From the NCBI GenBank assembly GCA_951406725.2, contig OX597814.1:116250001-116314000 (forward strand): a stretch of 64,000 nucleotides of DNA. The letters run 5' to 3'. The notes beneath the pieces are model-generated. The model saw only the letters and a program-made list of their open reading frames with translations, was not told where the DNA came from and did no database searches. Shown piece after piece: positions 3,260-59,491 of the stretch; the first letter of the stretch is position 1, and each line of letters opens with the position of its first letter. This DNA comes from Octopus vulgaris. Its lineage: Eukaryota. The translations under genes and the position numbers were made by a program.

Positions 3260-3689
3260 TCTCTCTCTTTTACTCTTCTAGTTGTTTCAGTTATTTGAAT
3301 GCGGCCATGCTGGAGCACAGCCTTTAGTCGAGCAAATCAATCCCATGACTTATTCTTTGTAAGCCTAGTACGTATTCTATCGGTTCTTCTGCCGAACCGC
3401 TACGTTACGGAGGCATAAAACGGACACACAAACACACAAACATGCATATATGTGACAAACACGGACACACAAACATGCATATATGTGACCGCGTGTGAAT
3501 CGTTGGCGATTTTTTTCCTCCGTCTTTCATTCCTGAGATCTCTCCTTTTTCTATGTTTCTGACGAAGAGCTCCGCTCGAAACGTTAAATTCTCCTTCTTT
3601 CTTTCCTTTCCTGAGCGTCCAATAACACTGTACTTGTTCCACGTCTTCGAGCTGTTGTGTTTTGTCGTTGTGTTTTCTTGTTTGGATTA

Positions 3690-9233: not shown

Positions 9234-11304
9234 CCCACACACACATACATACACATATTGCAAACACATATCAATATGAACGTAACCGCGTATGAATCAT
9301 CAATATTATAACCGTATGTCATACGTTTGTTTAAGTAATATTTTCTTTTCTTTGTTGTTATTATCGCTGCTGTTGTTGTTGTTGTTGTTGTTGTTAATGT
9401 TTCTGGAATCCTCATGCTTTTACATTACATAATATAAATGGAATAAAAACTTTTCGGAAAGAAAAATCTCCTGTTTTCTCCGCTTTTAATCAGAAACCTC
9501 AGGACATACGAAATTAAATCAAATATTCCTGTCACTTCTAGTCAATTGCAGAAGATTTTCGCTCCGAGTTTAAGGTGTAGATTTAGAACAGTTCACATAT
9601 ATAGTATAGTGGGAAGTGAAACATTCTCGGCTTCTCTTCTAGAATCTTACACTAATAATATTTTACACTACATACTCTAAATAACAGAAGTGTATTATGT
9701 CTCTCTCTCTCTTTTACTCTTCTAGTTGTTTCAGTTATTTGAATGCGGCCATGCTGGAGCACAGCCTTTAGTCGAGCAAATCAACCCCATGACTTATTCT
9801 TTGTAAGCCTAGTACGTATTCTATCGGTTCTTCTGCCGAACCGCTACGTTACGGAGGCATAAAACGGACACACAAACACACAAACATGCATATATGTGAC
9901 AAACACGGACACACAAACATGCATATATGTGACCGCGTGTGAATCGTTGGCGATTTTTTTCCTCCGTCTTTCATTCCTGAGATCTCTCCTTTTTCTATGT
10001 TTCTGACGAAGAGCTCCGCTCGAAACGTTAAATTCTCCTTCTTTCTTTCCTTTCCTGAGCGTCCAATAACACTGTACTTGTTCCACGTCTTCGAGCTGTT
10101 GTGTTTTGTCGTTGTGTTTTCTTGTTTGGATTAACTTTATATATATATATATAACGGGATAGCTATATATATATATATAAACAAAAGACGAAGGCAGGTG
10201 GAAAACAAACGAACAATTGTATTAGTATGGCGCTCAGGAAATATAAATAAAACAAGTCTTTAACGTTTCGAGCCTACGCTCTTCAACAGAAAGATACACA
10301 GAGAGAGAAAAACACAGAAAGAAGGAGAGAAAAAAAATGCGTGCAGTAGCTAACGACACTTGCCCAAGGTGTCACGCAGTGGGACTGAACCCAGAACCAT
10401 GTGGTTGGCAAGCAAGCTACTCACCATACGCAGCCACTCCTGCACCTGTTTGTAATATTAATACTTAACATTAAAGGAATCAAAAGTGTTGATTATTACG
10501 AAAATGGTGACGTCAATTAGGATTTATTTTCTTAATGGCCACGTCTCGAACGATAATAATCTTAATGATATTAATAATGATGATTATGATAATGATGAAT
10601 CTAATAATTCTAATTATGTGAATGATGGCGCTAATAATCACATTTATGTTAACAGTGATGTTAATAATGATGATTATCATAACGGCGGTCTTTGTTATGA
10701 TGATTATTATAATAATGTTAATAATATTATGCTTGATAATAATATAATATTCATGACGATTAGGACATCGGCAACTATTAGAACAGCGAAAACAACGATT
10801 AATACCAGGAGGGCGATTAAAACAGTGATTAAGATAGCAATTATGATGACAACGACCACTATGAACACGATTTTGATGATGATATCTATGGTTAGGAAGA
10901 CGAACTCAATAACGAAGTTAACGCAGTGATGATGGTGAATTTAGAAATGGCAGATTGCCAGGGTAAGTTAAAAATCTTCGTTGTAAATAACGATTTAGTA
11001 ATTGAAGCACAAATAACATCTAAGCACCAACATTATTTCATAATAATTCTTGAAAATGGTTGTAATAATTATTCATCGCACTCTGTAAATAATATATATA
11101 TATATGCATACGAGAAGTAATAAAATTATATAATGATATAATGTATAATAATATGATATAAGTGGAAGCGCGTGGTTTAGTGGTTAGGGTGTCAGCATCA
11201 TGATCGTAAGATTGTGGTTTCGATTCCTGGACCAGGCTACGCTTTCTGATCTTGAGCAAAACACTTCATTTCACGTTGCTCCAGTCCACTTAGCTGGCAA
11301 AAAT
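6416..11304. repeat. Copy 2 of the ~4.8 kb duplication
   Basis: Colinear with 1-4778. Confidence 0.95.
10180..10354 (-). mobile_element. Short HHR-motif element present only in duplication copy 2; homolog at 59701-59885
   Basis: Minus strand tcttt-CTGTTGA-a-GAGC gtag GCTC-GAAACGT-T-aaaga. Confidence 0.7.
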
Positions 11305-11499: not shown

Positions 11500-12445
11500 T
11501 CAGTTTTATTTCAACATGTCTTGCCAATGGAGAAGTTGATGGTTTCTAACCTAGGTCCGAGGTTCCTTCATTGCAATTTAAACAACACTAACAGGGTATT
11601 TTTGCATTTATGCATATATATATTCAATATTAGGAGTTAATGTACGTGTAGATTTGTATGTTTTATGCATGTATTCTCATGCAGAGTGTTACTTGCCTAG
11701 ACATGTTCATAAATACTTAAATGATAAACTTCTGGTAAGTTTTACAGATATTTACAGTTCCACTGGTGGCTTGGATCTGTAGTCTTCGAATCAGCTTTCT
11801 ACTTTCAGGTTTTGAGAAGCTCAATTTCTCAACATTGGTTCATAGGCAGCGTGTTACATATCCTAGTTCTCCAATAATTACATTTATAAGCCTGAACTTG
11901 TAATTTGGATAGAGTAACTGTAGAGTTCTCAATAGTTCAGCGCAGGTACTTTCTTGTTTACTGATTTCCCCAACTGTACATAGTTTCTCTTCGGGTTTTC
12001 ACATCAATGGCTCGGATCTCATTAAGCATCTAATCAAGCAACCCAAATGTTAGTATGAATACTGGCACTGAAAACACATTCTGGGCCACTGGTTTATTGA
12101 AAGCAGAGAATTCCGAGGTTCATATTTTCCTTATTTATCTGTAGTATTCTTTAGTGACTCGTGTCTTGTTACAGGTGCCATCGTAATATATGTTTTCATC
12201 CACAACAAGGTACCTATAACGTTCCTCGTCAGATATAGGGGAAACAGTTAAGTCATTGATAGAGATGTTATTAGTCTGTTTTACAGTTTTCCCTCTTTTC
12301 AAAACCATATAACATTTATCCTGACCAAACCCCAACCCTATATCCTTTGAGAATGTTGTAACCAGGTCATGCCTCTGTTTTATCTCTTGCATATTCATTG
12401 CATAGAGTTTCAAATCATCCACAAAGAGACAGTGCGTAATTTTGG
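11500..12445 (-). pseudogene. Decayed R4/Dong-like (restriction-like endonuclease) non-LTR retrotransposon: RT C-terminal part and endonuclease
   Basis: ITHCLFVDDLKLY...FSKDIGLGFGQDKC...YRYL in ORF 12135-12527, followed by ELLRTLQLLYPNYKF..VIIGELG; homologous to 57020-57340. Confidence 0.85.
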
Positions 12446-13361
12446 TATGTACGCATCTATCCACACACACGCACACACATATTATAATTACGTTGTAACT
12501 GGCACATTGTAGATTATTTAAAACCAAAGAAGGCTAACTTGGGAGAAAAGAATAATATCTATTTATTTCATGGCTGGGTATAAAACGTATACTTTGAATA
12601 TGATATATTATAGACTAGAATACTGTAGAGAGAGTCGGTGGCCAACTAAAAGTGTCCTCTGAAATATTAACCCAATTAACATTTCATGTAAGCTTCAAAC
12701 AAAGATAATAAAAAGAGATACAAAAGGAAAGCTATGAGGTAAGGGTGAGGATATATTCTAGTATTATTTCTACAAGTAATGACTAATATTAAGGATAATA
12801 ACTTATTAAGATGAAGAAAATGATCTGCAGATCCAGGCATATGAACTAGGACAATGATAATGTAGAGAAAATTTATTCGTAGTTACAAGTAATTTTAAAA
12901 ATATGACGTAATGTTTCGTAAACGAAGAGAAGCAAATATGTTAAGTGCCAAATATCAAAACTATTTGCAATTAAAATACATTATGAAAAGAATACGGAAA
13001 TAAAAATATTAAATGAATAATTTCAAATTGAAACGCTGAAGAAATACGGAAATCTTTTTTAGAAATCTTAATCAGATGAGCTGCAATTTACCAGAATATG
13101 TTTTAGAGTAGGTCTTGAAGATGAGTGGAAAAAGAAAATATGATTTCGCAAAAGAAAAAGAAATAGAAATGAAGGAGTGAGGCAGAAATTAATGAAGAAA
13201 GAAAACCAAAGAAGAATTCGCAGAGAAACCTGAAGGCACACTCATCGTGTAGCAGAATAATAATTTCTAGTTTATGGTTCTTTGTGTTTTGTTGTTGGTT
13301 TCGACTGAGGCAGTTTCCTCTCATTGTTAGCTTTATGTTGCATTTAGCTAAACACTATAAT

Positions 13362-13827: not shown

Positions 13828-13931
13828 AGGAAGTTTACAATTATAGTACTATTACATCTTAACTATTACTCTGGTTGTTAACATCCAGAGTCATAATAAG
13901 CATGTAATAGAACTATAATTGTGAACTTCCT
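13828..13931. repeat. Imperfect ~104 bp palindrome between (TTA)n tracts
   Basis: aggaagtttacaattatagt...gttaac...actataattgtgaacttcct. Confidence 0.9.
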
Positions 13932-15625: not shown

Positions 15626-15837
15626 TATTAATATAGGATGAAATTTTTTTCAGAAAAAAATTTCATCAGAAAGTGGCAGCATATTAAAATACCTTTACAG
15701 CTTAAAATTATAAACAACTTATAAACAAGGTCAAAAGAAAACTTATTTCCATGCCAATGTTCTGATAACAGACTTTAAAGTCTGTTATCAGCATATTGGG
15801 ATGGAAATAATTTTTCCTTTGCCCTTGTTTATAAGTT
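15625..15837 (+). other. (TA)n-flanked motif-plus-hairpin cassette (hairpin 15716-15837)
   Basis: aggatgaaa..agtggcagcatattaaaa followed by a palindrome centred on gactttaaagtc. Confidence 0.8.
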
Positions 15838-15877
15838 ATATATATATATAAACATCTATACATGCACGAGCACACAC

Positions 15878-15926
<49 letters not shown>

Positions 15927-16557
15927 CGCACACTCACACACATATGTGTATGCATGTATTCGTTGTGTATATGGGGTTTAAATCCTAGCTTTGTCCTCTT
16001 GGAGCACATCTGTTTATTCCAGTATTCTAAATTCGTATATTCGTATGCACATACAAGCTGAACATTCTGGAAATTATGCTTTGTAGTGTGACAATATATC
16101 AAAACAGGAGAATGGAAAATATCTTGGTATTATTGATTTGCCATCACATACGTTTCATTTACTGATACGAGTTACAAGGTTATATAAGTAAGAGAAACCT
16201 GTAAAATGCCTCCTATTAGAAATCTTGAGACAGAAAATCAAATGGTAACAGTATTATTTGATTCTCTGTCTGAAAAATTTCCAATAGGAGATATCTTACA
16301 TGTTTCTCCTACACGTACAACTTCGAATTCCCTATTAGCAAATGAAACATGTATACATGTAAATAAATAATACCAACATCTATATATATGAAATTGTCAG
16401 TGCAACCGCACAAATTTTACGAGTAGAATCTAATATGCCGGTATTTTATGTTTATAATTATATCCTTAAATATTGTATCAGGGTTTAACACTTCTTTTTC
16501 GTAGGTATATTGCTTTATTATGGAGAGCAATTTTGCATAGAATATGCTAGAGAGTCA

Positions 16558-17610: not shown

Positions 17611-17927
17611 CAATTACAATAAATGAGGATAAAACTTTTCTTAAAAAATTTTATGAGTGGCGAGCGTATAAAATGAAACCGATTAAGGTGAAAAATTATA
17701 TGTATAATTATAACAAAGGCTTAGAAAAGAAATTTTCTAGCCTATTTGCTGAGAAACAGACACTATATCGTTTCTCTATTCAAAGAAGTCAGAATTAGAT
17801 GTGCTGAATTCATGTGTCAAATTCAGCACATATGTTTGTGACTTCTTTTAATAGTGAGACGATTTCGTGTCTATTTCTCAGCATATAGGCTAGAAAATTT
17901 ATTTTCTAAGCCTTTATTATAATTATA
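17610..17927 (+). other. (TA)n-flanked motif-plus-hairpin cassette (hairpin 17703-17927)
   Basis: aggataaaa..ttttatgagtggcgagcgtataaaa followed by a ~225 bp imperfect inverted repeat. Confidence 0.85.
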
Positions 17928-18282
17928 TATATATAAATATATGTATTTTGTTAAATTATTCAGCATTCAACCACGGATGAGAACAATATTAGACTGTGGT
18001 TCGTGGAGCGAACATACTGTGGTCTTTGTTGGGCGGTGGACTGAACATGTGCAAGGATGACATATGTATGTGAATGTGCTGTTTTATTTCAAGATTTCAT
18101 GCCAATTCATAAAGAGCCGGTTTCTAACCTAGATCCAAGTCTCCTTTATTGGAATGTAAACATCAACAACAAGGTATTTTTGTACGTATGTATGTATTTA
18201 TGTATATATGCATGCATGTATATATATATATATATGTATGTAGACTGTGCAGCACCTCACGCTTTTAATAATAATAATAATG

Positions 18283-20379: not shown

Positions 20380-21420
20380 TTTGTAACCACACTAAAATTA
20401 TTGTTGGGGGAAAGTTCCTTGGGGTTGTCGATTCATTTGTCTACCTTATAAGCTCTGTTCAAAATGATGGAAATCTTGATACAGAAATACAGCTGCGAAT
20501 TCAGAGGGCAGCAAAAGCATTTGGCAGCTTGGAGTCACGCGTTTGGTGCCAGTGACATATAAATAAGAATACAAAGCGGGCTCTTTAAAAAACATTTGCC
20601 ATACCAACCCAGTTGTATTCTTGTGAAACTTGGACTTGTTATGAAAGGAATTTTAAATTGTTAGAACAATTTCACCAACAATGTCTTCATCGCATTTTAA
20701 AAATTAAATGGAGTTCTTTTACTCAGACACAGATGTCCTTGCATCTGCAGGCACCACCTCAATTAAAGTTATGATTTTGAGGAACCAACTGAGATGGTGT
20801 GGCCATATTCTTCGAATGGCAGATGAACGCATGCCGATCAGCTGTTTTATGGTGATCTTGCAGAGGGGAAATGCTATCGGCGTAAGCCTAAAAAAGGTTT
20901 AAGAACGGCATAAGGACTACTATGAAGTCACCTGGAATGGTTCCAGAAGATATAGAAACCCTTGCTTCGGATAGAGTCGGATGGCGAACACAGGTGTAGA
21001 GTGGAGTGAAAGCATTTGAAGAGGCCAGGATAACGCAAGTAAGACTCAAAAGATATCTAAGGAAGAATGTAACGATCAAGAAGGTGAATGACAATGACCT
21101 TTTTGCGTGCACAGCCTGTGACAGACCATGCCTGTCTTTTGCTGGCCTCAAATCGCATTGGCGAACGCATGGAAAACGAACCTCCACCAACTATTCTGGC
21201 TATATGTCTGTGCACACCTTTGAATGCAGTGTATGGCAGAGGTTTTGCAAATCCGACGGAGACCTCAAAAGACATTTTAAGATCCACGAAGAGCAGAACT
21301 TATCTGCAGCTCTTGGCGGTTCAAATCGGAAGTAAAATCTATGTAGGTGTCTTTTCAGAACATTTTCTGGTTTAAAAAGAAAGCCACATCAAATGCCTTG
21401 ATTGTGCTAAGGCATAGGTG
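20380..21420 (+). pseudogene. 5'-truncated RTE-clade LINE ORF2 C-terminus with two C2H2 zinc fingers
   Basis: VDSFVYL..DTEIQLRIQRAAKAFGSL; QLRWCGHILRMADERMP; FACTACDRPCLSFAGLKSHWRTH; stops and frameshifts present. Confidence 0.9.
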
Positions 21421-21473: not shown

Positions 21474-21801
21474 ATATTTATATATTTATATTGAGGGCAT
21501 TACTATACATGAATGCCACACGCTAAGAGGGACTCTTAAAGTCAAATCTACCAAAATAAATAAAAAGTTTGTATCGAATACGAGGGAATGCAACTCTCTT
21601 ATTCGATACAATGTGTTTATTTATTTTGGTAGTTTTGACTTTAAGAGCCCCTCCTAGCGTGAGGTATTTATGTATAGTAATGCCCTCAATATAAATACAT
21701 AAATATATTTTAAGAAGAAAAATTGATGGATTTTCCCTAATGAGGTTTTTCACGCCAACTACTTGATAATTTCTTATAAAGATTTTATCCTATTTTAAAA
21801 T
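21474..21801 (-). other. Motif-plus-hairpin cassette (hairpin 21474-21706)
   Basis: ~230 bp imperfect inverted repeat; minus-strand aggataaaa..agttggcgtgaaaaacct upstream. Confidence 0.8.
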
Positions 21802-23349: not shown

Positions 23350-24331
23350 CCACTGAGTGACCACATAGACTCATGCGCTAAAGACTCAAACCCCAAATTC
23401 TATATATTCCCCTTCTACCAATGTAAAGACGGGGTCACCACACAGGAGAGAATTAACAAGGAGAATCTCTTCATTGAAAAATTCCAAACACAACTTAATA
23501 TACAAACTCCTCGTTGATCAAACTTCCCTTTTCTACCTCATTCTTCATGGATGGACTCACACAAATATATAAGGATACCATAGATTCATCACTTCAAGCT
23601 AAAACTTATATTCTTTAAATATCATTTTTACTATTGTTGTTATTACCATCATTTTTATTATATATGACATAACAATCTGAAATGTAATTATAAATTGGTC
23701 TATGCAAATTTATATAATTAGAAAATAATATAAATAAAGTGTTAAAATCTGAAAGTTAAGTTAACAAACAATTATATAAAAAAGATAATACAAATGAAGC
23801 TAAAATCATAATTTTATAATTTGGGGTTTATTAGCAGCCTTTATTACAGGGGATTTTCTGAAACAAAAATTAAAGAACTCAAAAGAGTTGTCTCCCCTTA
23901 TTCACAACACAGGAACTGAAGAACCACAATTACTACTACTTCCTGTTTTTGCCAACATCCTTAATTAAACCAAACAACACATGGTCTTAATCCCATCGGA
24001 TCCTAATACCTCAAGGTAACTTTTTCGTGAACAATCATTAAACTCAAGATACACAACGAACTCACAATGTATTATTTATTATTATTCTTTTGCAAAAAAC
24101 AATGCAACTTTCTTTTTTCCCCTTTCTCATTTTAAAAAAAAACTTTTGTTACATAACTATTCTTGATAAGTCACACTATGACGAAAACCGGTTTGAATAA
24201 ATATATATTTATATATTTTTTCAATTTCTCATTTCATCAAAATTTTCTTTCAATCTAGCATTCTGCATTTTTACAATTTTTCCTTGCTTATCATTTCTCC
24301 ACGTGCGGTCAACACAACCCCACCATTTATT

Positions 24332-24928: not shown

Positions 24929-24987
<59 letters not shown>

Positions 24988-24990
<3 letters not shown>

Positions 24991-25179
24991 GTTTGAAAAT
25001 GCAATTTTAAAAGATGTTTATTCACTTGACCGGTTTCAACTTTTTAGAAAAAGGTTGTCAAAAGTAACATGTAAAAGGTTTCAACAAAGCTTTATATTTT
25101 ACTTTTGACAATCTTTTTCTAAAAAGGTGAAACCGGCCAAGTGAATAAACATCTTTTAAAACTGCATTTTCAAACCTTC
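24988..25179. mobile_element. ~190 bp palindrome made of two head-to-head HHR-plus-AATAAA units
   Basis: Minus 25024-25065 actt-TTGACAA-stem-GAAACCGGTC-aagt-g-aataaa; plus 25101-25142 is the same with GCC instead of GTC. Confidence 0.75.
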
Positions 25180-25266
25180 TTTCATATATAATACCACTCG
25201 TGCGGTATCTTACAACTTCACTTTGTTATATATATATATATATATATACATAAATACATACATAAT

Positions 25267-25351
<85 letters not shown>

Positions 25352-25861
25352 AATATATCCGCACCGTATTGGCCCGATCGTTAGAACAAGGGTCGACCAC
25401 TTTATTCCCGATCTCTCTTCTCTTGCCCCAAATATTCCAGCATCTAATTTACTTTTATGTTTCTGTGGATGAATAAAATAAATTATCAAACCAAAATTTA
25501 GATTAGTGGAATTGTCAGAGCATCATAAAGATCCACGTGCATTTTTTCTAGTTCTTATTGTTTAGAATTCTTTCGAAGGATGATTTCATTCGTCCAGTTG
25601 TTTGACAACAGCACTTGGTAACTGAGTGGATTTCGCGGAGACCAGTAGGCATTCGGAGTTAATTCTACACTTCACTCTCAGCAAGCCTGTTAAAGGATTA
25701 AATGTACTGCTCTTCTCTATCTGTGTGTGAGTATAAAAATATATATAAATATACGTATGTGTTTGTGTGTGTATATATATGCATATCTACATCTGTATTG
25801 AGATGTAATGTTTATCGCCACTTCAGCATGGCTGTTCCGTAGAAACCGGCGTTACTACCGG

Positions 25862-26106
25862 TTTAACCCCTGGAAGACGCCTCCTCCACCTGGTTTTTCA
25901 ATGCAATCCGCACACGATATATATTGCAAGTATACTCTAGCGGGCGAATCTCCACCACCAAGAATGATCAGAAAGAGGTCGAAACCGTACGGTCTGGTGG
26001 TCTCGTGGATGGAAGATGGTAAGGATTCACTCCCCTGCTTGCAATGTATATGGAGCGCAGATTGCATCGAATAATCACTTGGAAGAGACGTCTTCCTGGG
26101 TTTAAA
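25862..26106 (+). ncRNA. ~245 nt rod-like hairpin with a degenerate hammerhead at its apex (25952-26000)
   Basis: Arms ggaagacg/cgtcttcc, atgcaatc/gattgcat, attgcaag/cttgcaat; ccacca..GATC/GGTC-GAAAC-CGTACG-GTC-tggtgg. Confidence 0.65.
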
Positions 26107-26373
26107 ATTATTTCTCAGTATACTTACTGCTTTCATCACTTATTGAGATTTTCTAAGAAGCCAATTTGCTTCCATCTATCTAGAATTATATAGAACTGCC
26201 AGGATGTTTTCGACTCCATCCACATAATATATGATGATGATGTTGACAATTATGGTCTCTCTCTTATTCCGAGGTTGACGGATCTGCAGTTTCTTGCTGA
26301 ATGGCCGGCACAAATAATTTGTTTATAGTGATGAAATGTATGTGCTGAAATGTATATGAAATGTATATTAGCT

Positions 26374-26605
26374 CACGGCGAACTGGCAGAAACGTTAGCA
26401 CATCGGACGAAATGCGTAGCCGTATTTCGTCTGCCGTTACGCTCTGAGTTCAAATTCCGCCCAGATCGACTTTGCCTTTCATCCTTTCGGGGTCGATTAA
26501 ATAAGTACCAGTTACGCACTGGGGTCGATATAATCAACTTAATCCGTTTGTCTGTCCTTGTTTGTCCCCTCTCTGTTTAGCCCCTTGTGGGTAGTAAAGA
26601 AATAG
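26374..26605 (+). mobile_element. SINE family A, near full length
   Basis: Matches the family consensus seen elsewhere in the window. Confidence 0.85.
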
Positions 26606-27349
26606 TGTATTAGCTCATGTCCTCCATAATATCGATATTGACTGAACAGGAGCACGGTGTGCCACGCAGCAGGCGTCGAAGTGGTCGTAGATGAACGTTA
26701 GGTGAAGTATTTTGCTCGAGATTACTACACACCACTCAGTCTAAGAATTGAAACCACGATCATAACAAGCCAAAGAAAAAAGTATGAAGATAAGATGTCA
26801 GATGCGTTTGTTTATATTAATTAAGGTGAGATCGAACCAGGAAATTATTGAATATCAAGAATCAATAAGAGTAATTTGCAGGGATTGTTGCATGTTAATT
26901 CGTTTAGAATAGGGCGTAGTTAGGTTGAAATGTTAACTGGTAGGTAGGGAAAGGTAAAGAGAAAATGAAGTTGTGTGGGAGTAAGTGAATGAATGAGTAG
27001 GTAAGAGGAGGGGGTCAACGGAAATGAATGAACATGATAGATACTTATTGGCATATGAGTAAAAGGGATGGCAGGGAAGACGGAAATGCATTGATGTGCA
27101 AAATCGTTATATTTATAACTTCGGCGAGGCAGGCTGTAATGGTCAGCATTATAAAATGTGATAGGCAGCAGATACGTATAAATAAAGGAAAAATAAAAAA
27201 AGATAGAGATAGAGATAGTAATAGAGAGAAAGATATAGAGATAGAAAGAGAGAGGAGAGAGGGAGAGAGAGTAACAAACACATGAAAAGAGAGGAAATGA
27301 GTTACAAAGATTGTAAAGAAATAGAAAGGTAGTTAAATAGATAAATTGA

Positions 27350-32640: not shown

Positions 32641-32689
<49 letters not shown>

Positions 32690-32896
32690 GAGCAATTTTA
32701 GAAACAAAACCACCTTCAACTCAATCAACACTGAAAGGTTATATACCCGATCACTCCATACAGAGTGGTCGGGTATAAAACCTCAGAATAGATATAGTTA
32801 GTATAAGATTTAATTTTTAACATTTTATGGAGTGGTCGGGTACAAAACCTTTCAGTGTTGATTGAGTTGAAGGTGGCTGTGTCTCTAAAATTACTC
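32690..32896. repeat. Foldback unit with ~70 bp arms carrying the GAGTGG..TATAAAA motif three times
   Basis: ccaccttcaactcaatcaacactgaaagg / cctttcagtgttgattgagttgaaggtgg; gagtggtcgggta(t/c)aaaacct at 32763 and 32830. Confidence 0.85.
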
Positions 32897-33945
32897 TTAT
32901 ATATATCTATTTAAATATCTGTGTGTGTGTGTCTCATCAACGGCTTGCTAATCTACGTTTCCGTAGCTTAGCAGTTTGCTTGAGGGACATAAAACAAGTA
33001 CTATACATAAAAAGTAAGTACTGGGGTTGAATTGTTCCACTAAATCCTTGAAGACGGTGCTCCAGCATGGGCGCAGTCCTGTGACCGAAACAAGTAAGAG
33101 ACAATCGATAAATGATACTGATGGACAACTATTAAGTTTTCATTTTAAACGCTGTAAATAATATTAAACCTTAAAATCACAGAGCTGGCTCAGCTGAAAT
33201 AAAAATAAAATGAATGGCGTAACGCGTATCGACAGTTCGACATGTTAAAAAAAACTTCGAACGGAATGTTCAGAACTTGAATAGTTTTGCTATACCCTGT
33301 GGAGTCGGTGCTATGGTCTGTCTGTCTCAAACCACTAATGTTAACGATATTAGTAGCATCTGACACAAATAGAAGCAGTTTGGGAATTTTGTTTTTTCAC
33401 TAATTTTAGCTTTTTACGTAAGATTCACTGTTACAATTGGTAATAAACACGATACAAGTCTCTTACATTGATTTTCCTATTTCGGTAACATACATCGTTA
33501 CATTTTGATAATGGCTACTCATCACTTTGTTTAATTATTGTTGAGAGTTTACATTTTTGACCAGGAACAGATGAAAGGTAAAGTTATCCTGAGAACTGAA
33601 ATGTAAACTCATAGCGTAGAATGAGATGAAATGTTTAGTATAGTCTGCATTTAGTTTAACTAATTCCTGAGAATTCAACGATCTCCACGTTAACACAATA
33701 ATCATTGTATCACGGGCATTCTGGATATAAGTTTGGAGATAAACTATATCAGTTAGAGAAGAGATATAACCGACAATCAAATAGAGGTTATGAATTGTTT
33801 GCAATTCATAGCTGACCTCGATCACCTTCAGCTAAGTACTCGAAGAAATGATTCTACTTGCAAAATATACCTCAAATAATATCCTTTAGATTTCGTTTTT
33901 GGATTTGCTTTGCAAGATTCTTTATGTGAGTTCGTGAGTTGAAGC

Positions 33946-34152
33946 ATATTCTGTTGTGTCTGGGGAGAGTCATTTTCTTTTTGTGCCTTATAATTTAACA
34001 CACTCACCAGTAAAGACTATTGAAAATGTTGCAAGACGCAACGGAAATTTTAGGAAAAATAAAAATAAGAAATAAGTGGAAATTTTACCGGTGAGTGTGT
34101 TAAATCATAAGGCACAAAAAGAAAATGACTCTTCCCAGACACAAAAGAATAT
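33946..34152. mobile_element. MITE with ~68 bp terminal inverted repeats
   Basis: atattctgttgtgtctggg..ttaacacactcacc / ggtgagtgtgttaa..cccagacacaaaagaatat; second partial copy at 16558. Confidence 0.85.
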
Positions 34153-35999
34153 TCTTTAGCTTTGTATGAAAGAAGTGCATACAAAATGTGAAGGTGCGGA
34201 GTCTAGTGGTAAATAAGTTCGGTTTATGATTAGAAAGTTATGAGTTTATACTTCGGACTGGGTTACGCATTGTGTCGATTCTGGTCAGCTAAATGTTGGA
34301 GTCATTCTCTCACCCCAGATTCTATATTCTGGGTGTGCCACTGGGTCAACGGTGAAGAGGGTGAAATAGTGTCTATATTTGCTGGTGACTACATATGTAT
34401 AAAAAAGAAATGAGTGAAGTTAAGTTACATATTACCAAGTCATACTGGTTCTCGAATGTGCGTTGACTGTGTATATTTGCAATTATAGTTCTAGATACAG
34501 TATTTCTAAAAACAGTTGTTACTGGAAGGTTTTGATCATTGGAATGACTCGATTGATCGCAGCTCTTTGGATACTGGCAATTTGCCATGGCTGTGTGGGT
34601 ATTCAGCGTTATTTTAATGGTGAAAGTTCTTTTTGGTACTGGAGGCAACCTACACACAAAGACACATTCACTCAAATACGTGCATACGCGCGCAGAAATA
34701 TATATATGCAGAGAAAGAGAGGGAGAGAGTGCGAGAGAAAGAATGAGAGAGGCAGAGAGAGAAGGGAGAGGGAGATAAGGAGAGAGAGGTAGAGTGAGAA
34801 AGAGGGAGAAAAGGAGAGAGAGGTAGCGAGAAGGGAGAAAAAGAGAGGAGATATTACACATAAGTAATTGGTACAAATGAACAAAAAGAAAAGGTGAGAA
34901 ACCGAGGAAAGGGAGGACATGAGAAACATTAAAACAAAAGAAATATTGAAACGTCTGATGTTGAATCTTATCAATCTATGAATGTAAAGGCAAATGCTAC
35001 CTGTTTTCACTACCTAAGTGGCTACGTACAAAACCCTATCAACTGCCCCTCTTATAACTAATTTACTAATTTAACTCCCGCTTATACTAAACACCCTAAT
35101 GTTACAAAACAAGTCTACACATTTGTTAGAGGAGAGATAAAAATCGATTGAAATAACCTCATTATATGACTGGTACATATTTTGTTCTCCATAGAGACAG
35201 TAAAAGTAAAACTTGTCCCAATGTAAAGGAAACAATCTCAAGAGTCTGATATATTTTTAATCATGAATTCACTATCGTTGAACTTGTTGCAGGTCGGACC
35301 AGCGTGTATCTATAAATTAATGTCCGAACATTGAAGAATGACTGTATAGCATAGCCTTTCTACAAACCACAGCGTAATTCTAGAAAATGCCCAAAATGTT
35401 CATGTTTTAATGTAGGAGTATTATTTCCTCTATAGCCAGAAATAATAGTTTTGCAATATTTGAAATTGTAAAATAACTTTTCACTTTAAAGACGATCTTA
35501 ATGATGATGGTTTATAATGGTCATAAGATATGCAAGAAATATTAATGAAATTTACCATATTAAAACTTATTAGTTAATTAAGTCTGAAATAGACTGTCGT
35601 GAAAGAAAAGAAAATGGCTACAGATTGAATACATTGGTCAGGTCTACTGGATGAGACGAGACCTGATAAGGCTTGAAGAAACTGAACAAACTGTATGCAA
35701 ATATGCTTTTTGCAGAGTCGAGTAGATAAAAATCAGAGTGAGATCATCGGGGCCATTTAGTTAGTATAGTAACTCGACCAGTGAAATGGTCAAGCTCTCC
35801 AAAGGTCTTCGGAATGGAATAAAATATAAATGCTGTATAATTATATATTACGTTTGTTATTTGGACTATGGTTTTCCAGTTCTATGCTATACTATAATAT
35901 ACAATACTATACGGTACTATACAATCTATATATATATATATATATATATAACAAATGAGAGAGAGAGAGGGAAAATGGAATTTACGAGATTCAGTATTA

Positions 36000-45790: not shown

Positions 45791-46755
45791 TATATTAGTC
45801 AAGAATTGGATGAGCTAAAAGTAAGTTTTAAAAGACATGGTCTGTATGCGAAGGGTAAACGGTAACCTCTAATAATATATGATAATATTTTCGGGAGAGC
45901 TTTCTGCTGCTTTATTCAAATACCACGTAATCTATTTGATATTATTGCCATGAAATTACTATGACTGTTATCTTGCCACTCAAGATACCCTTGTTCCTGT
46001 ATTTGAAAGTGCCAGCCTTGCAACATCCTGTGTCATGCTGAATCTACCTGAGAACTACCTTCAAGCTTATGTACGTCTGTGGAGTTCTCAGCCACTAGCA
46101 CGTTCATTTCACAAGCTGGCTATTCCGTTGATCGCATCAACTGGCAAAGGGATCGCAAAAGTTGAAGAGAAGAATGAAAGGTAGAAAGAAGTCTGAATTA
46201 GCTCAAATGTGTTTTTTAAAAAAATATCCTTACTAATCACTGGAAGCTCTACAAAGTATTGCCTAACCCACGAATAAACACCACAATAATACAGAGAATA
46301 GGTACAAGCAAAATCAATCAACACTACTACAACATGACTTAGTAACGCTGAGTAAAAATAATAGATTTTAGATTTCTTCCTTGAGAATATTGGCAGCGAG
46401 AAAATAATATTGCTATTGTATTTTCTTTTTAGTTAAGTGTAACCGACAAGACGATGAATGGCCGCATTAAGAGCCTGTTCATATAAGATATATGTTACTA
46501 GAAGCTGATAGCAATGCTACGCATGGCTGGGTATCTCATGTTAGATGTATTATCATTGATTTCAGTAGGGAGAATGTTTGGAATAAATCAATTTGCTTCA
46601 ACACTGATTACAATCTCTGTACAGTGAGATTTAAGATGCTATGTTTAAAGACAGCTCTATGTATTTCTGCTTTCTTTCGTTCGGTGATGAAGAAACAAAC
46701 ATTGTAATAACTATGATAAGTCTGTCATACGTTATATGATAGCACATAAATATAA

Positions 46756-46820
<65 letters not shown>

Positions 46821-47056
46821 TATGCATGTATCTATGGATGTAATTTTACACCTACACACCCAGACATTTAGACAAACATCTCTCAACAGACAGAACCGTT
46901 CCCATATATATCCTTACGGTATGAGAACTTTGGAAATTGATGAAATAAAGATATAATATAATAATATATCACTTTATATACATACATATATACATATATA
47001 TATACACACACTCATATATATATATATATATATATATTTATTTATTATATAGAAGG

Positions 47057-47107
47057 AGCTTCTACAGGATTAGTACTGTTTCATTCAAGAGAAATCTTCA
47101 GGAAGCT
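47057..47107 (-). ncRNA. Type-I hammerhead ribozyme in the PLE terminal region
   Basis: Minus strand agcttc-CTGAAGA-tttctcttgaat-GAA-ACAG..CTGT-A-gaagct followed by AATAAA. Confidence 0.75.
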
Positions 47108-47430
47108 ATTTGACAAGAATTGTATTAGCATTTATACATTTAGGCAGGTTTAAAGGAGTGGTGGTGGGGGACTTTTTGGGGGTAGGCATAGCGCAAAATA
47201 TCATACTTGGGGGAGTGGTCAAGGAGTCAGTGGTAAGTTAGATGAAAGAATAGATAAATAAAGAAATAAAAAAATAAAAAATATATATAAAAAATATATA
47301 TATAAAAAATATATATATAAAAAAAAGGGGGGATAGAGTTATAGGTAAATAAGGAGATTCTCACTTATACCTATACACACATGTATACGTATCTACACAC
47401 ACACACATATACACATATATATATATATAT

Positions 47431-47477
<47 letters not shown>

Positions 47478-48294
47478 CATATATACACACATACATACAT
47501 ATCTACATACACACATACATACACCCGCCCACATATACAAATTTATACACATGCACATGCCTATACCTGTCTACACATACACACACGTATATATGCATAC
47601 ACTCACTCCCATGCATGCACGCATACACACATGTGTATATATATATATATATATATACCCACGACCACACATACATATATACACAGAAAAATATATATTC
47701 ATACGCACATACACTCATGCACACACAACACACCTAGTTCCCTATATACACATATTTACACCTATATATACATACACCCACATACACCTATGTACATATA
47801 TATATATATATATATATACATATACACGCATACATATATATACATGTGTGCACATACATACATACACACATATACATACACATACACATACACATGTGTA
47901 CCTATACATACCTACACATACACACATACATACATACAAATATATATATACATATATATATATACAATCCAATACAGGCCCATTCCCTAATTTTAATTTT
48001 ATTATCTTCATTTATTACTTTTGTTATCTTTGATCGCTAGATCTAAGAATCCTGGCTATGGCTGCATGTCCATTTGTCTGTCTACTAGAAGGCAAGTACT
48101 CATTCCCGCACGCACACTCATTAGCACGTACATTCACCCATTCGTACACTCATACACATACACGTACGCACGCGTTATATTCATACATACAAACATCTAC
48201 ATACGTTCACGTATATACACATACGTACTCGTACCTACAGATTCGTGTCTACACTTTAGGAGGCTAGTCTATACATATACACCAATAAATATAC

Positions 48295-48325
<31 letters not shown>

Positions 48326-48369
48326 TACACACACACACATATATATACTCCTACATACAGATACATACC

Positions 48370-48425
<56 letters not shown>

Positions 48426-48649
48426 CATACACATACACACATACATATACACACACATACATACACATATATATACATACACAAACATATATACACACAT
48501 ATATCCTTACGGTATGAGAACTTTGGAAATTGATGAAATAAAGATATAATATAATAATATATCACTTTATATACATACATATATACATATATATATACAC
48601 ACACTCATATATATATATATATATATATATTTATTTATTATATAGAAGG

Positions 48650-48700
48650 AGCTTCTACAGGATTAGTACTGTTTCATTCAAGAGAAATCTTCAGGAAGCT
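48650..48700 (-). ncRNA. Type-I hammerhead ribozyme (identical tandem copy)
   Basis: Same sequence as 47057-47107. Confidence 0.75.
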
Positions 48701-49022
48701 ATTTGACAAGAATTGTATTAGCATTTATACATTTAGGCAGGTTTAAAGGAGTGGTGGTGGGGGACTTTTTGGGGGTAGGCATAGCGCAAAATATCATACT
48801 TGGGGGAGTGGTCAAGGAGTCAGTGGTAAGTTAGATGAAAGAATAGATAAATAAAGAAATAAAAAAATAAAAAATATATATAAAAAATATATATATAAAA
48901 AATATATATATAAAAAAAGGGGGGATAGAGTTATAGGTAAATAAGGAGATTCTCACTTATACCTATACACACATGTATACGTATCTACACACACACACAT
49001 ATACACATATATATATATATAT

Positions 49023-49069
<47 letters not shown>

Positions 49070-49955
49070 CATATATACACACATACATACATATCTACAT
49101 ACACACATACATACACCCGCCCACATATACAAATTTATACACATGCACATGCCTATACCTGTCTACACATACACACACGTATATATGCATACACTCACTC
49201 CCATGCATGCACGCATACACACATGTATATATATATATATATATATACCCACGACCACACATACATATATACACAGAAAAATATATATTCATACGCACAT
49301 ACACTCATGCACACACAACACACCTAGTTCCCTATATACACATATTTACACCTATATATACATACACCCACATACACCTATGTACATATATATATATATA
49401 TATATATACATATACACGCATACATATATATACATGTGTGCACATACATACATACACACATATACATACACATACACATACACATGTGTACCTATACATA
49501 CCTACACATACACACATACATACATACAAATATATATATATACATATATATATATACAATCCAATACAGGCCCATTCCCTAATTTTAATTTTATTATCTT
49601 CATTTATTACTTTTGTTATCTTTGATCGCTAGAGCTAAGAATCCTGGCTATGGCTGCATGTCCATTTGTCTGTCTACTAGAAGGCAAGTACTCATTCCCG
49701 CACGCACACTCATTAGCACGTACATTCACCCATTCGTACACTCATACACATACACGTACGCACGCGTTATATTCATACATACAAACATCTACATACGTTC
49801 ACGTATATACACATACGTACTCGTACCTACAGATTCGTGTCTACACTTTAGGAGGCTAGTCTATACATATACACCAATAAATATACATATATATATATAT
49901 ATACACACATATACATACACACACACACATATATACTCCTACATACAGATACATA

Positions 49956-50009
<54 letters not shown>

Positions 50010-50180
50010 CATACACATACACACATACATATACACACACATACATACACATATATATACATACACAAACATATATACACACATATATATACATGCACAC
50101 ATACACACATACATACGTATACATACATACATACATCCATACATCCATACTTACATGCATTTATACGCATACACACACCC

Positions 50181-50224
<44 letters not shown>

Positions 50225-51844: not shown

Positions 51845-52253
51845 TCAATCAGGTTGCCAGGTAGGTCTATAGTTCTTGTAGTTCGCATACTTCTTATGCA
51901 TGCAATTTGGGGAGTGTTCTGAAAATTTGTTAAGGAGAGGGCCTTTGGCGAACAAGATCTCTAGGCTCTCTGATATGCATAGGTCACAGCAGGTATGTCC
52001 TCCTGTGTACAGAGCGCGCCTTCTGTAGTAGTTTCCACTTGGTCTTGAAGGGGATTGAGTTCCTTTTAAGGTACCAGATGTGGGCGGCGAGGGTAGTTTG
52101 GTTGGATTTATCCTGTCGCCGGAACGAGTGTGTATGTGCGTACCAGCGGGTCTTAAAGCTGTTTGACGTCATTCCAATGTAGGATTTACTTTTATCGTCA
52201 AAGCCTGATCTTACCTCGCATTTATATACTAGGTCCCTCTGTAGGCAGTTGTT
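51845..52253 (-). pseudogene. PLE GIY-YIG endonuclease domain, 5'-truncated with one frameshift near 52010
   Basis: CLQRDLVYKCEV..SYIGMTSNSFKTRWYAH..F..TTLAAHIWYLK..KWKLL, then CDLCISE..LLNKFSE..CMH. Confidence 0.9.
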
Positions 52254-52600
52254 AACTGCCATGATAAAACCACCTGCCCCCTCAACAACAACTGCCTACA
52301 GAGGGACCTAGTATATAAATGCGAGGTAAGATCAGGCCTTGACGATAAAAGTAAATCCTACATTGGAATGACGTCAAACAGCTTTAAGACCCGCTGGTAC
52401 GCACCATCCTACCTCGTTCCGGCGTACAGGATAAATCCAACCAAACTACCCTCGCCGCCCAAATCTGGTACCTTAAAAGGAACTCAATCCCTTCAAAGAC
52501 CAAGTGGCAGAAGGCGCGCTCGTACACGGGAGGACATACCTGCTGTGACCTATGCATATCAGAAGCAGCCTAGAAGATATATTTTCAGAGCCTCCCAAAT
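52254..52600 (+). pseudogene. Inverted, more disrupted copy of the GIY-YIG domain including the Cys-rich linker
   Basis: NCHDKTTCPLNNNCLQRDLVYKCEV..YIGMTSNSFKTRWYA, then many indels. Confidence 0.85.
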
Positions 52601-59133: not shown

Positions 59134-59491
59134 ATATTATTAGTGAATGGAAGAAATGGAGTTGAACGAAGATTGTACAGAATTCCTTTTATTACATTCT
59201 ACACATGTTTCAAAGGCCACAAATTTCCAAATTCTTATTAAATAAGGGTAACATATTGTTCAGCCATGGGCTCTTAAGGAGCGTCCTCGTTCGAATTGCG
59301 TTGCTGCGCCTCTGTTTTGTTTTGTTCTGTCAACGGAATTCCTGTTTTTTCCTGAAGAGAAAGCCACAATACGGTACCCTTATTTAATAAGAATTTGGAA
59401 ATTTGTGGCCTTTGAAACATGTGTAGAATGTAATAAAAGGAATTCTGTACAATCTTCGTTCAACTCCATTTCTTCCATTCACTAATAATAT
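59134..59491. mobile_element. Element with apparently perfect 117-bp inverted repeats and a hammerhead overlapping the right arm
   Basis: 59134-59250 is the reverse complement of 59375-59491; ttc-CTGAAGA(59352)-gccacaa/ttgtggc-GAAAC ATGT GTA-gaa, AATAAA at 59432. Confidence 0.85.

Follow-up and report, generated by a model that had tools for sequence, protein, structure and literature searches.

The results described here indicate that the rod-shaped hairpin at 25862-26106 of the window (the whole 64-kb stretch of DNA that was analyzed) probably belongs to a head-to-head insertion of two 5'-truncated Penelope-like terminal-repeat pieces, and that the rod is likely a by-product of an inverted duplication at the DNA level. 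An earlier note on this DNA had interpreted it as a retrozyme- or viroid-like RNA with a rod fold. This interpretation was not borne out, because the two arms converge on one family sequence, a single copy folds no better than shuffled sequence, the locus holds no tandem unit, and the layout is of the Penelope type. A preprint makes the case for an origin of retrozymes in Penelope terminal repeats (bioRxiv 10.64898/2026.07.22.740005), so the earlier note nevertheless came near the right lineage. The insertion is made of the segments below.

25796-25804, plus strand: 9-bp direct repeat of 26141-26149, resembling a target-site duplication except that its right copy lies inside family sequence
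25805-25930, minus strand: inverted copy, likely 5'-truncated, made of X' (25862-25930, the left arm) and Y (25805-25861)
25931-25934, no strand assigned: four-base junction TATA between the copies; the left arm ends at 25930 and listed pieces start at 25935-25937
25935-26107, plus strand: direct copy lacking Y, made of the hammerhead region followed by X (26038-26106, the right arm)
26108-26156, plus strand: segment Z, at the right end only, ~49 nt, a candidate Penelope "tail"; depth drops at ~26156

Stability of the hairpin and its arms

Folding of the plus strand of 25862-26106 (245 nt) in an RNAfold-type check gave -101.8 kcal/mol and a z of -7.9, and none of 200 shuffles folded as well, which confirmed the nested complementary blocks that the earlier note had described and disposed of a fold no better than shuffles, which it had named as evidence against its own reading. 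The minus strand was more stable (-110.6 kcal/mol, z -9.9). The arms of the rod (25862-25930 and 26038-26106) are 69 bp each and 80% complementary. When the inner 107 nt (25931-26037) were folded alone, z was -0.31, i.e. shuffle-like; thus, the stability of the rod is the contribution of its outer arms. A single copy without the inverted arm gave z values of +0.51 (25935-26106) and +0.73 (25935-26157), both for linear RNA of a family whose full unit may extend upstream. The 14 mismatches between the arms comprise 2 GU on the plus strand, 5 AC and 7 others, and therefore are not skewed in favor of a helix of plus-strand RNA.

With one script and 25 shuffles each, ten other foldbacks of the window (104-383 nt) gave z values of -10.6 to -27.8 vs -8.8 for 25862-26106; the remainder of the 20 candidates were short, microsatellite-based or too long to fold. 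Therefore, the rod by itself is unremarkable in the DNA of this window. The GC content of the 245-nt span is 0.473 vs 0.392 and 0.351 in flanks of equal length, and the whole window (GC 0.346) is microsatellite-rich, with no long genes near the hairpin. A coding role for the span was rejected, as an ATG at 25964, the start of helix II (see below), opens a frame that closes after 36 codons. The description of the span as non-coding and GC-richer than its flanks was thereby upheld.

A multi-copy repeat family

Contigs from 4 of the 24 listed sequencing runs were aligned at 80% likeness on 25560-26340, namely three DNA runs, which carry three species labels and come from three studies, and run X22, which is presumed to be RNA. 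Runs X9-X20 had small word shares, and X9 alone of these was aligned. The DNA runs yielded 1002, 845 and 1274 aligned contigs, counts that include another repeat starting near 26283. These 845-1274 contigs per run bear out the earlier suggestion of a multi-copy element, and single-copy sequence, the second observation that the earlier note had named against itself, was not found. The adjoining repeat (26283-26611) is dispersed at very high copy, with depth up to 107552 in run X1 and many copies in the window; it is presumably SINE-like.

Depth climbs from the single-copy level to hundreds-fold between ~25803 and ~26156, and the high-copy repeat therefore spans 25805 to ~26156. The extent of ~245 nt given in the earlier note is accordingly correct for the hairpin but too narrow for the element. 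Summed depth on segment Y is 234-531x that of the single-copy flank, depth being no copy number; towards Y, depth grows from 41-74x in the 5' part, the gradient that 5' truncation would be expected to give.

Comparison of the arms with the listed majority letters of the family showed that 9 of the 14 mismatches become Watson-Crick pairs, one stays unpaired and four have no listed letter; by eye, the consensus of loose contig ends at 26070/26074 repairs three of these four. The majority letter at 25875 disrupts a pair of this copy unless the opposite base is altered with it, and such an altered partner is seen only in loose ends. Because nine mismatches are repaired in this way, the arms look like two decayed copies of one family sequence, each with its own substitutions, bearing in mind that contigs may map to either arm, which favors apparent convergence. 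Furthermore, one X9 contig spans 25868-26108 without gaps, with 20 differences and at single-copy depth. It probably represents the same locus in another species, in which case the head-to-head structure would be old.

Run X22 contributed 43 contigs, none at least 95% identical to this copy, and is uninformative on its transcription. No further copy of the element was found in the window by blastn, and there was neither a tandem unit at the locus nor a head-to-tail array of 150-450 bp hammerhead units elsewhere in the window. A pattern for segment Y had no matches in genome contigs or in viral contigs. An 18-mer around the GAAA box had none in viral contigs and 19 in metagenomes; the latter were dismissed as chance, since they lie in GC-rich DNA, lack a first box and extend over at most 18-20 bases. 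The family is not described in the literature searched, and could already be catalogued in repeat libraries such as Repbase or Dfam.

Segment order at this locus and in other copies

The hairpin boundary at 25862 is not a boundary of the repeat; contigs cross it into Y, with equal depth on both sides. In each DNA run, 32-41 contigs depart from the window sequence at 25805, and their consensus agrees with 26112-26141 read in reverse complement. The left-arm match ends at 25930; there, 17 X9 contigs branch off with a consensus similar to 26008-26037 in reverse complement. In addition, 20 X1 contigs enter 26108 from Y. Such loose ends, together with joints between opposite strands (25805 with 26112), gave the segment order of other copies: core (25935-26011), then X, then Y (25805-25861 in reverse complement) and finally Z (26108 to ~26156). 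At this locus, the order is inverted X' and Y, the four-base junction, core, X and Z. The right copy lacks Y, and in the left copy Y ends exactly at the Y/Z boundary. The Y/Z depth ratio was 2.2, 2.2 and 1.4 in the three DNA runs. The placement of 26141-26149 inside the family is based on depth and on a single X22 contig that runs to ~26156; in addition, the left flank of the hairpin resembles part of Z.

At other loci, inverted Y directly precedes the direct copy, with junctions 25839-26003, 25856-25954 and 25856-25935. None of the 15 joints listed, out of 105, connects 25930 to 25935. Among the 32 pieces listed, out of 3394, 11 begin at 25935-25937, none of them listed with a link to the left arm, and the single X7 joint ending at 25935 leads to 25856. 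In one X7 contig, the 40 letters before 25935 partly complement X; by this insert, the hairpin of the family itself may be longer than helix I.

These junctions bear on an alternative that we regard as rather unlikely, namely that the entire palindrome, from inverted Y and X through the core to X, Y and perhaps Z, is the unit of a non-autonomous foldback family with a vestigial hammerhead, either MITE-like or a palindromic Penelope derivative, of which this and the other copies are deletion derivatives. Internal deletions within such a palindromic element would account for the variable junctions just as well. Inverted Y stands before the core at the three other loci, two of which break at the same X/Y boundary, and the X7 insert, the resemblance of the left flank to Z and the ten other foldbacks within 64 kb would also fit. 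However, the listed joints and the pieces starting at 25935-25937 do not connect the core to the left arm as such a unit would, and the depth of Z is about half that of Y in two of the three DNA runs. A piggyBac-type MITE was considered and rejected, because the TTAA-CCC...GGG-TTAA ends are internal and copies run on through them into Y.

A hammerhead relic at the apex

The apex of the hairpin, within the direct copy, has the layout of a type I hammerhead with the following parts, all on the plus strand.

25937-26012: extended helix I, pairing 25952-25957/25995-26000, 25944-25947/26003-26006 and 25937-25941/26008-26012
25952-25957/25995-26000: helix I, 6 Watson-Crick pairs
25958-25964: broken first catalytic box CCAAGAA, with C3, A6 and A9 kept and U4C, G5A and G8A changed
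25965: extra U between positions 9 and 10.1, which makes the box 8 nt long
25966-25969/25977-25980: helix II, 3 Watson-Crick pairs and 1 GU, with a closing G10.1-C11.1 pair and a 7-nt loop
25981-25984: intact second box GAAA
25984-25993: palindromic helix III
25992-25994: GUC triplet, with the would-be cut site after 25994

All parts named in the earlier note (6-bp stem I, stem II, GAAA, GUC and the decayed box) were found in place. The three helices, the GAAA box, the G10.1-C11.1 and A15.1-U16.1 pairs and the NUH triplet are present, but the CUGANGA box with its C3-G8 pair is not intact, as three of its six invariant letters are changed while C3 is kept. The Penelope hammerhead consensus consists of a first box CUGANGAH, an extra base between 9 and 10.1, a G10.1-C11.1 pair, and palindromic 15.2-16.2 and loop 3 (PMC4209133); by comparison with that account, the motif equals the consensus except for the three box letters. 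With both strands scanned, it is the only match in the window with a helix I of at least 6 bp. Such a match occurred in 2 of 300 block-shuffled windows and in 1 of 20000 shuffles of the element, and none of the 300 shuffled windows combined it with at least three box letters and a palindromic helix III. The descriptor was composed after the motif had been seen, and the shuffles lose the palindromic context, so that the helix I part of the test is generous. The hammerhead layout exceeds chance.

The sequences of other copies point the same way. At each of 25944, 25968 and 26009, the majority letter of the family gives a Watson-Crick pair in a hammerhead helix where this copy has a wobble or mismatch: those at 25944 and 26009 replace a GU pair and a mismatch in extended helix I, and C at 25968 (57-77% of depth in the three DNA runs) gives helix II four Watson-Crick pairs.

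This copy is likely inactive, as the earlier note had supposed, a judgment based on U4C, G5A and G8A in the first box together with established hammerhead chemistry and the G8C result reported in PMC11167929. The predicted fold does not adopt the hammerhead, which has a probability of ~6e-7 in the 245 nt and 0.006 in 25950-26003, and forcing it costs 8.2 kcal/mol. Rfam hammerhead models gave no match in the window at the gathering threshold; in 25700-26300 there were 13 Rfam matches at E<=10, none of them to a hammerhead. A descriptor scan found no minus-strand hammerhead at the element.

Elsewhere in the family, record 11 of X22 covers 25938-25964 and differs at 31 of 173 bases, and hence stems from another copy. 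That copy also lacks an intact box by deduction: the run has six A>G places in all, five of which are listed elsewhere, so that G cannot stand at both 25960 and 25963. No majority letter fell in the first box among the 40 variant rows listed out of 172. At 26012, between 17 and 32 contigs per DNA run diverge from the window sequence and form a second group, whose X9 loose-end consensus pairs 12/12 with 25937-25948 by eye; the box of this second subfamily may be intact. A family consensus without CUGANGA, the third observation that the earlier note had set against its own reading, is thus seen in part, in one further copy without the box and in the listed rows without a restoring letter; the box of the second subfamily may be intact.

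The same evidence is pertinent to a non-LTR retrozyme family with a unit of ~300 nt, elsewhere arranged in tandem with an intact hammerhead and giving self-paired RNA circles, of which this locus would be a rearranged dead copy; we consider this improbable. The unit of ~280 nt plus an upstream part would fall within the 170-400 nt range given in PMC7229834, the 6-bp helix I with its distal extension and the 4-bp helix II are as in canonical motifs, the family letters improve the hammerhead helices, and the second subfamily leaves at 26012 with a possibly intact box. The two classes would also touch if retrozymes derive from Penelope terminal repeats, as the preprint argues (bioRxiv 10.64898/2026.07.22.740005). 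Nevertheless, this locus has no tandem unit, there is no go-back joint among the 15 listed of 105, a single copy is not highly self-paired (z +0.5 and +0.7), the additional base following position 9 is typical of the Penelope type, and no intact box was seen in this copy, in record 11 of X22 or in the 40 listed rows. Finally, a chance resemblance within an ordinary palindromic repeat would agree with the three wrong box letters, the absence of an Rfam match and the predicted fold, but is very improbable given the shuffling results and the three family letters, each of which improves a hammerhead helix.

Other features of the window

Intact minimal Penelope-type hammerheads, with the full first box, the extra base, helix II and GAAAC-GT-T, occur at 3559 and 10003 on the plus strand, within a 3.7-kb near-identical duplication (1-3735/6416-10179); none of 300 shuffled windows contained a match. 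At 9954-10336, minimal hammerheads lie ~290 bp apart on opposite strands (10003, plus, intact; 10289, minus, with one box change) in a 66% inverted pair. A candidate hammerhead at 24163-24195 (plus) has a 7-nt box, helix II and a palindromic helix III, and its U3-A8 covariant core is of the kind known from Schistosoma Penelope elements.

A 615-bp palindrome (88%) at 51845-52574 is built from a GIY-YIG-like ORF (Pfam E 0.03; atlas 0.94, with GIY-YIG on 35% of members), two pieces of which face each other head to head, and lies at the center of a 97.6% inverted duplication (48629-51737/52601-55712). Homologue searches with this fragment found nothing. A reverse-transcriptase fragment at 12135-12533 (minus; Pfam RVT_1, E 1.5e-4) and a C2H2 zinc-finger fragment at 21000-21335 (plus) are likely retroelement debris.

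Nine unrelated AT-rich foldbacks (13828-13931, 15709-15844, 16121-16379, 17697-17933, 21474-21706, 24978-25190, 32668-32918, 33942-34156 and 59134-59491) have z values of -10.8 to -27.8, several with TA-rich ends, and are possible sources of long double-stranded RNA. The long near-identical direct duplications 1-3735/6416-10179 (97.5%) and 46743-50221 (94%), one of which lies beside 100 N, may be assembly artifacts.

Proposed origin of the insertion

We therefore return to the head-to-head insertion of two Penelope-like terminal-repeat pieces. Thousands of Penelope-type hammerheads are known from animal genomes, usually arranged as inverted copies. Penelope elements are described as having an inverted, 5'-truncated copy by the 5' end, in head-to-head orientation, with an optional tail of 30-40 bp at one end (PMC8557442, PMC3846280). 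The locus is structured like such an inverted-pLTR insertion, and by this analogy its membership in the Penelope class is likely. An inverted 5'-truncated copy lies beside the 5' end here and, with other junctions, at three more loci; the two copies differ in 5' truncation, Y ends at the Y/Z boundary, and Z is found on the right only. The other Penelope-type hammerheads of the window (3559, 10003 and 24163 on the plus strand, 10289 on the minus strand) and the GIY-YIG-like fragment were also counted for this reading. Against it stand the length of Z (~49 nt vs the published 30-40), the missing Rfam hammerhead match, the X7 insert, the lack of a clean target-site duplication, which in Penelope elements is optional and of about 8-10 bp, and the ATG at helix II, which resembles that of PAc but opens a frame of just 36 codons. 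This locus has no reverse transcriptase or GIY-YIG ORF, and the family was unmatched in the sequence collections scanned.

In the case of PAc, the protein makes cuts in both strands and extends them, and it starts reverse transcription at two sites bounding the tail (PMC11167929). By analogy with this anole element, the reverse transcriptase/GIY-YIG protein of the element could have nicked both strands of AT-rich DNA, and element RNA could have been copied from each of the two nicks. Both copies would have stopped early, their 5' ends being joined at 25930/25935, with the tail (26108-26156) carried by one copy only. Separate decay of the two arms would then have reduced their complementarity to 80%, and Y would have been lost from the right copy.

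The role of Penelope hammerheads has been called unclear (PMC8557442), and hammerhead core mutants inserted equally well in vitro (PMC11167929). It is conceivable, though we put it forward tentatively, that a family with a dead core has spread in hundreds of copies while its helices were kept, serving as a natural inactive hammerhead scaffold and a folding or protein-binding signal. In the boldest form of this idea, the palindrome itself would have become a unit copyable from either strand. If it is true, the genome would hold evidence of Penelope-type mobility without any need for cleavage, and if the family keeps the helices but has no core, it would be a natural test of the hammerhead's role in such elements. 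One decayed insertion carries little weight by itself, but it serves as a warning that a rod with a hammerhead in an animal genome can arise at the DNA level without a viroid-like RNA. Editing of double-stranded RNA from palindromic repeats has been described for a Xenopus Harbinger ADAR substrate (PMC5625713); transcripts of the 69-bp arms, should there be any, may be one more such substrate.

Comparison with known systems

The motif resembles the type I hammerheads of Penelope pLTRs as presented by Cervera and de la Pena (2014; PMC4209133), especially the Aedes aegypti variant with its small palindromic helix III, in the 8-nt first box and the extra base after position 9, and further in G10.1-C11.1, GAAA, the palindromic helix III, the NUH triplet and a helix I of 5-6 bp. 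It differs from them in U4C, G5A and G8A, in a helix II of 4 bp vs 5-8, in the long distal extension of helix I, and in being known here without a link to an ORF.

The insertion as a whole is similar to the inverted-pLTR insertions of Adineta vaga Pen2/Pen2a (PMC3846280; scheme in PMC8557442), with head-to-head copies of differing 5' truncation, an end piece on one side only and an internal deletion of the microhomology type. Unlike these, it has no ORF between the repeats, its tail candidate is ~49 nt long, and the 9-bp repeat is no clean target-site duplication.

The defining features of retrozymes are tandem units whose hammerheads work, and circular RNA (PMC7229834; bioRxiv 10.64898/2026.07.22.740005). 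With the metazoan non-LTR retrozymes of coral, mussel and axolotl, as described in PMC7229834, the family shares its non-coding nature, a type I hammerhead, short high-copy repeats and a GC content below 50%. In contrast to them, the locus lacks a tandem unit and the copies seen lack an intact core; the monomer does not pair strongly with itself, and the rod is produced by a second copy in inverted orientation.

Finally, the hairpin is like the Xenopus Harbinger ADAR substrate (PMC5625713) in being a foldback of ~200-250 nt that would form long double-stranded RNA if transcribed, whereas the copies of this family appear mostly linear and a hammerhead relic lies at the center of the palindrome.
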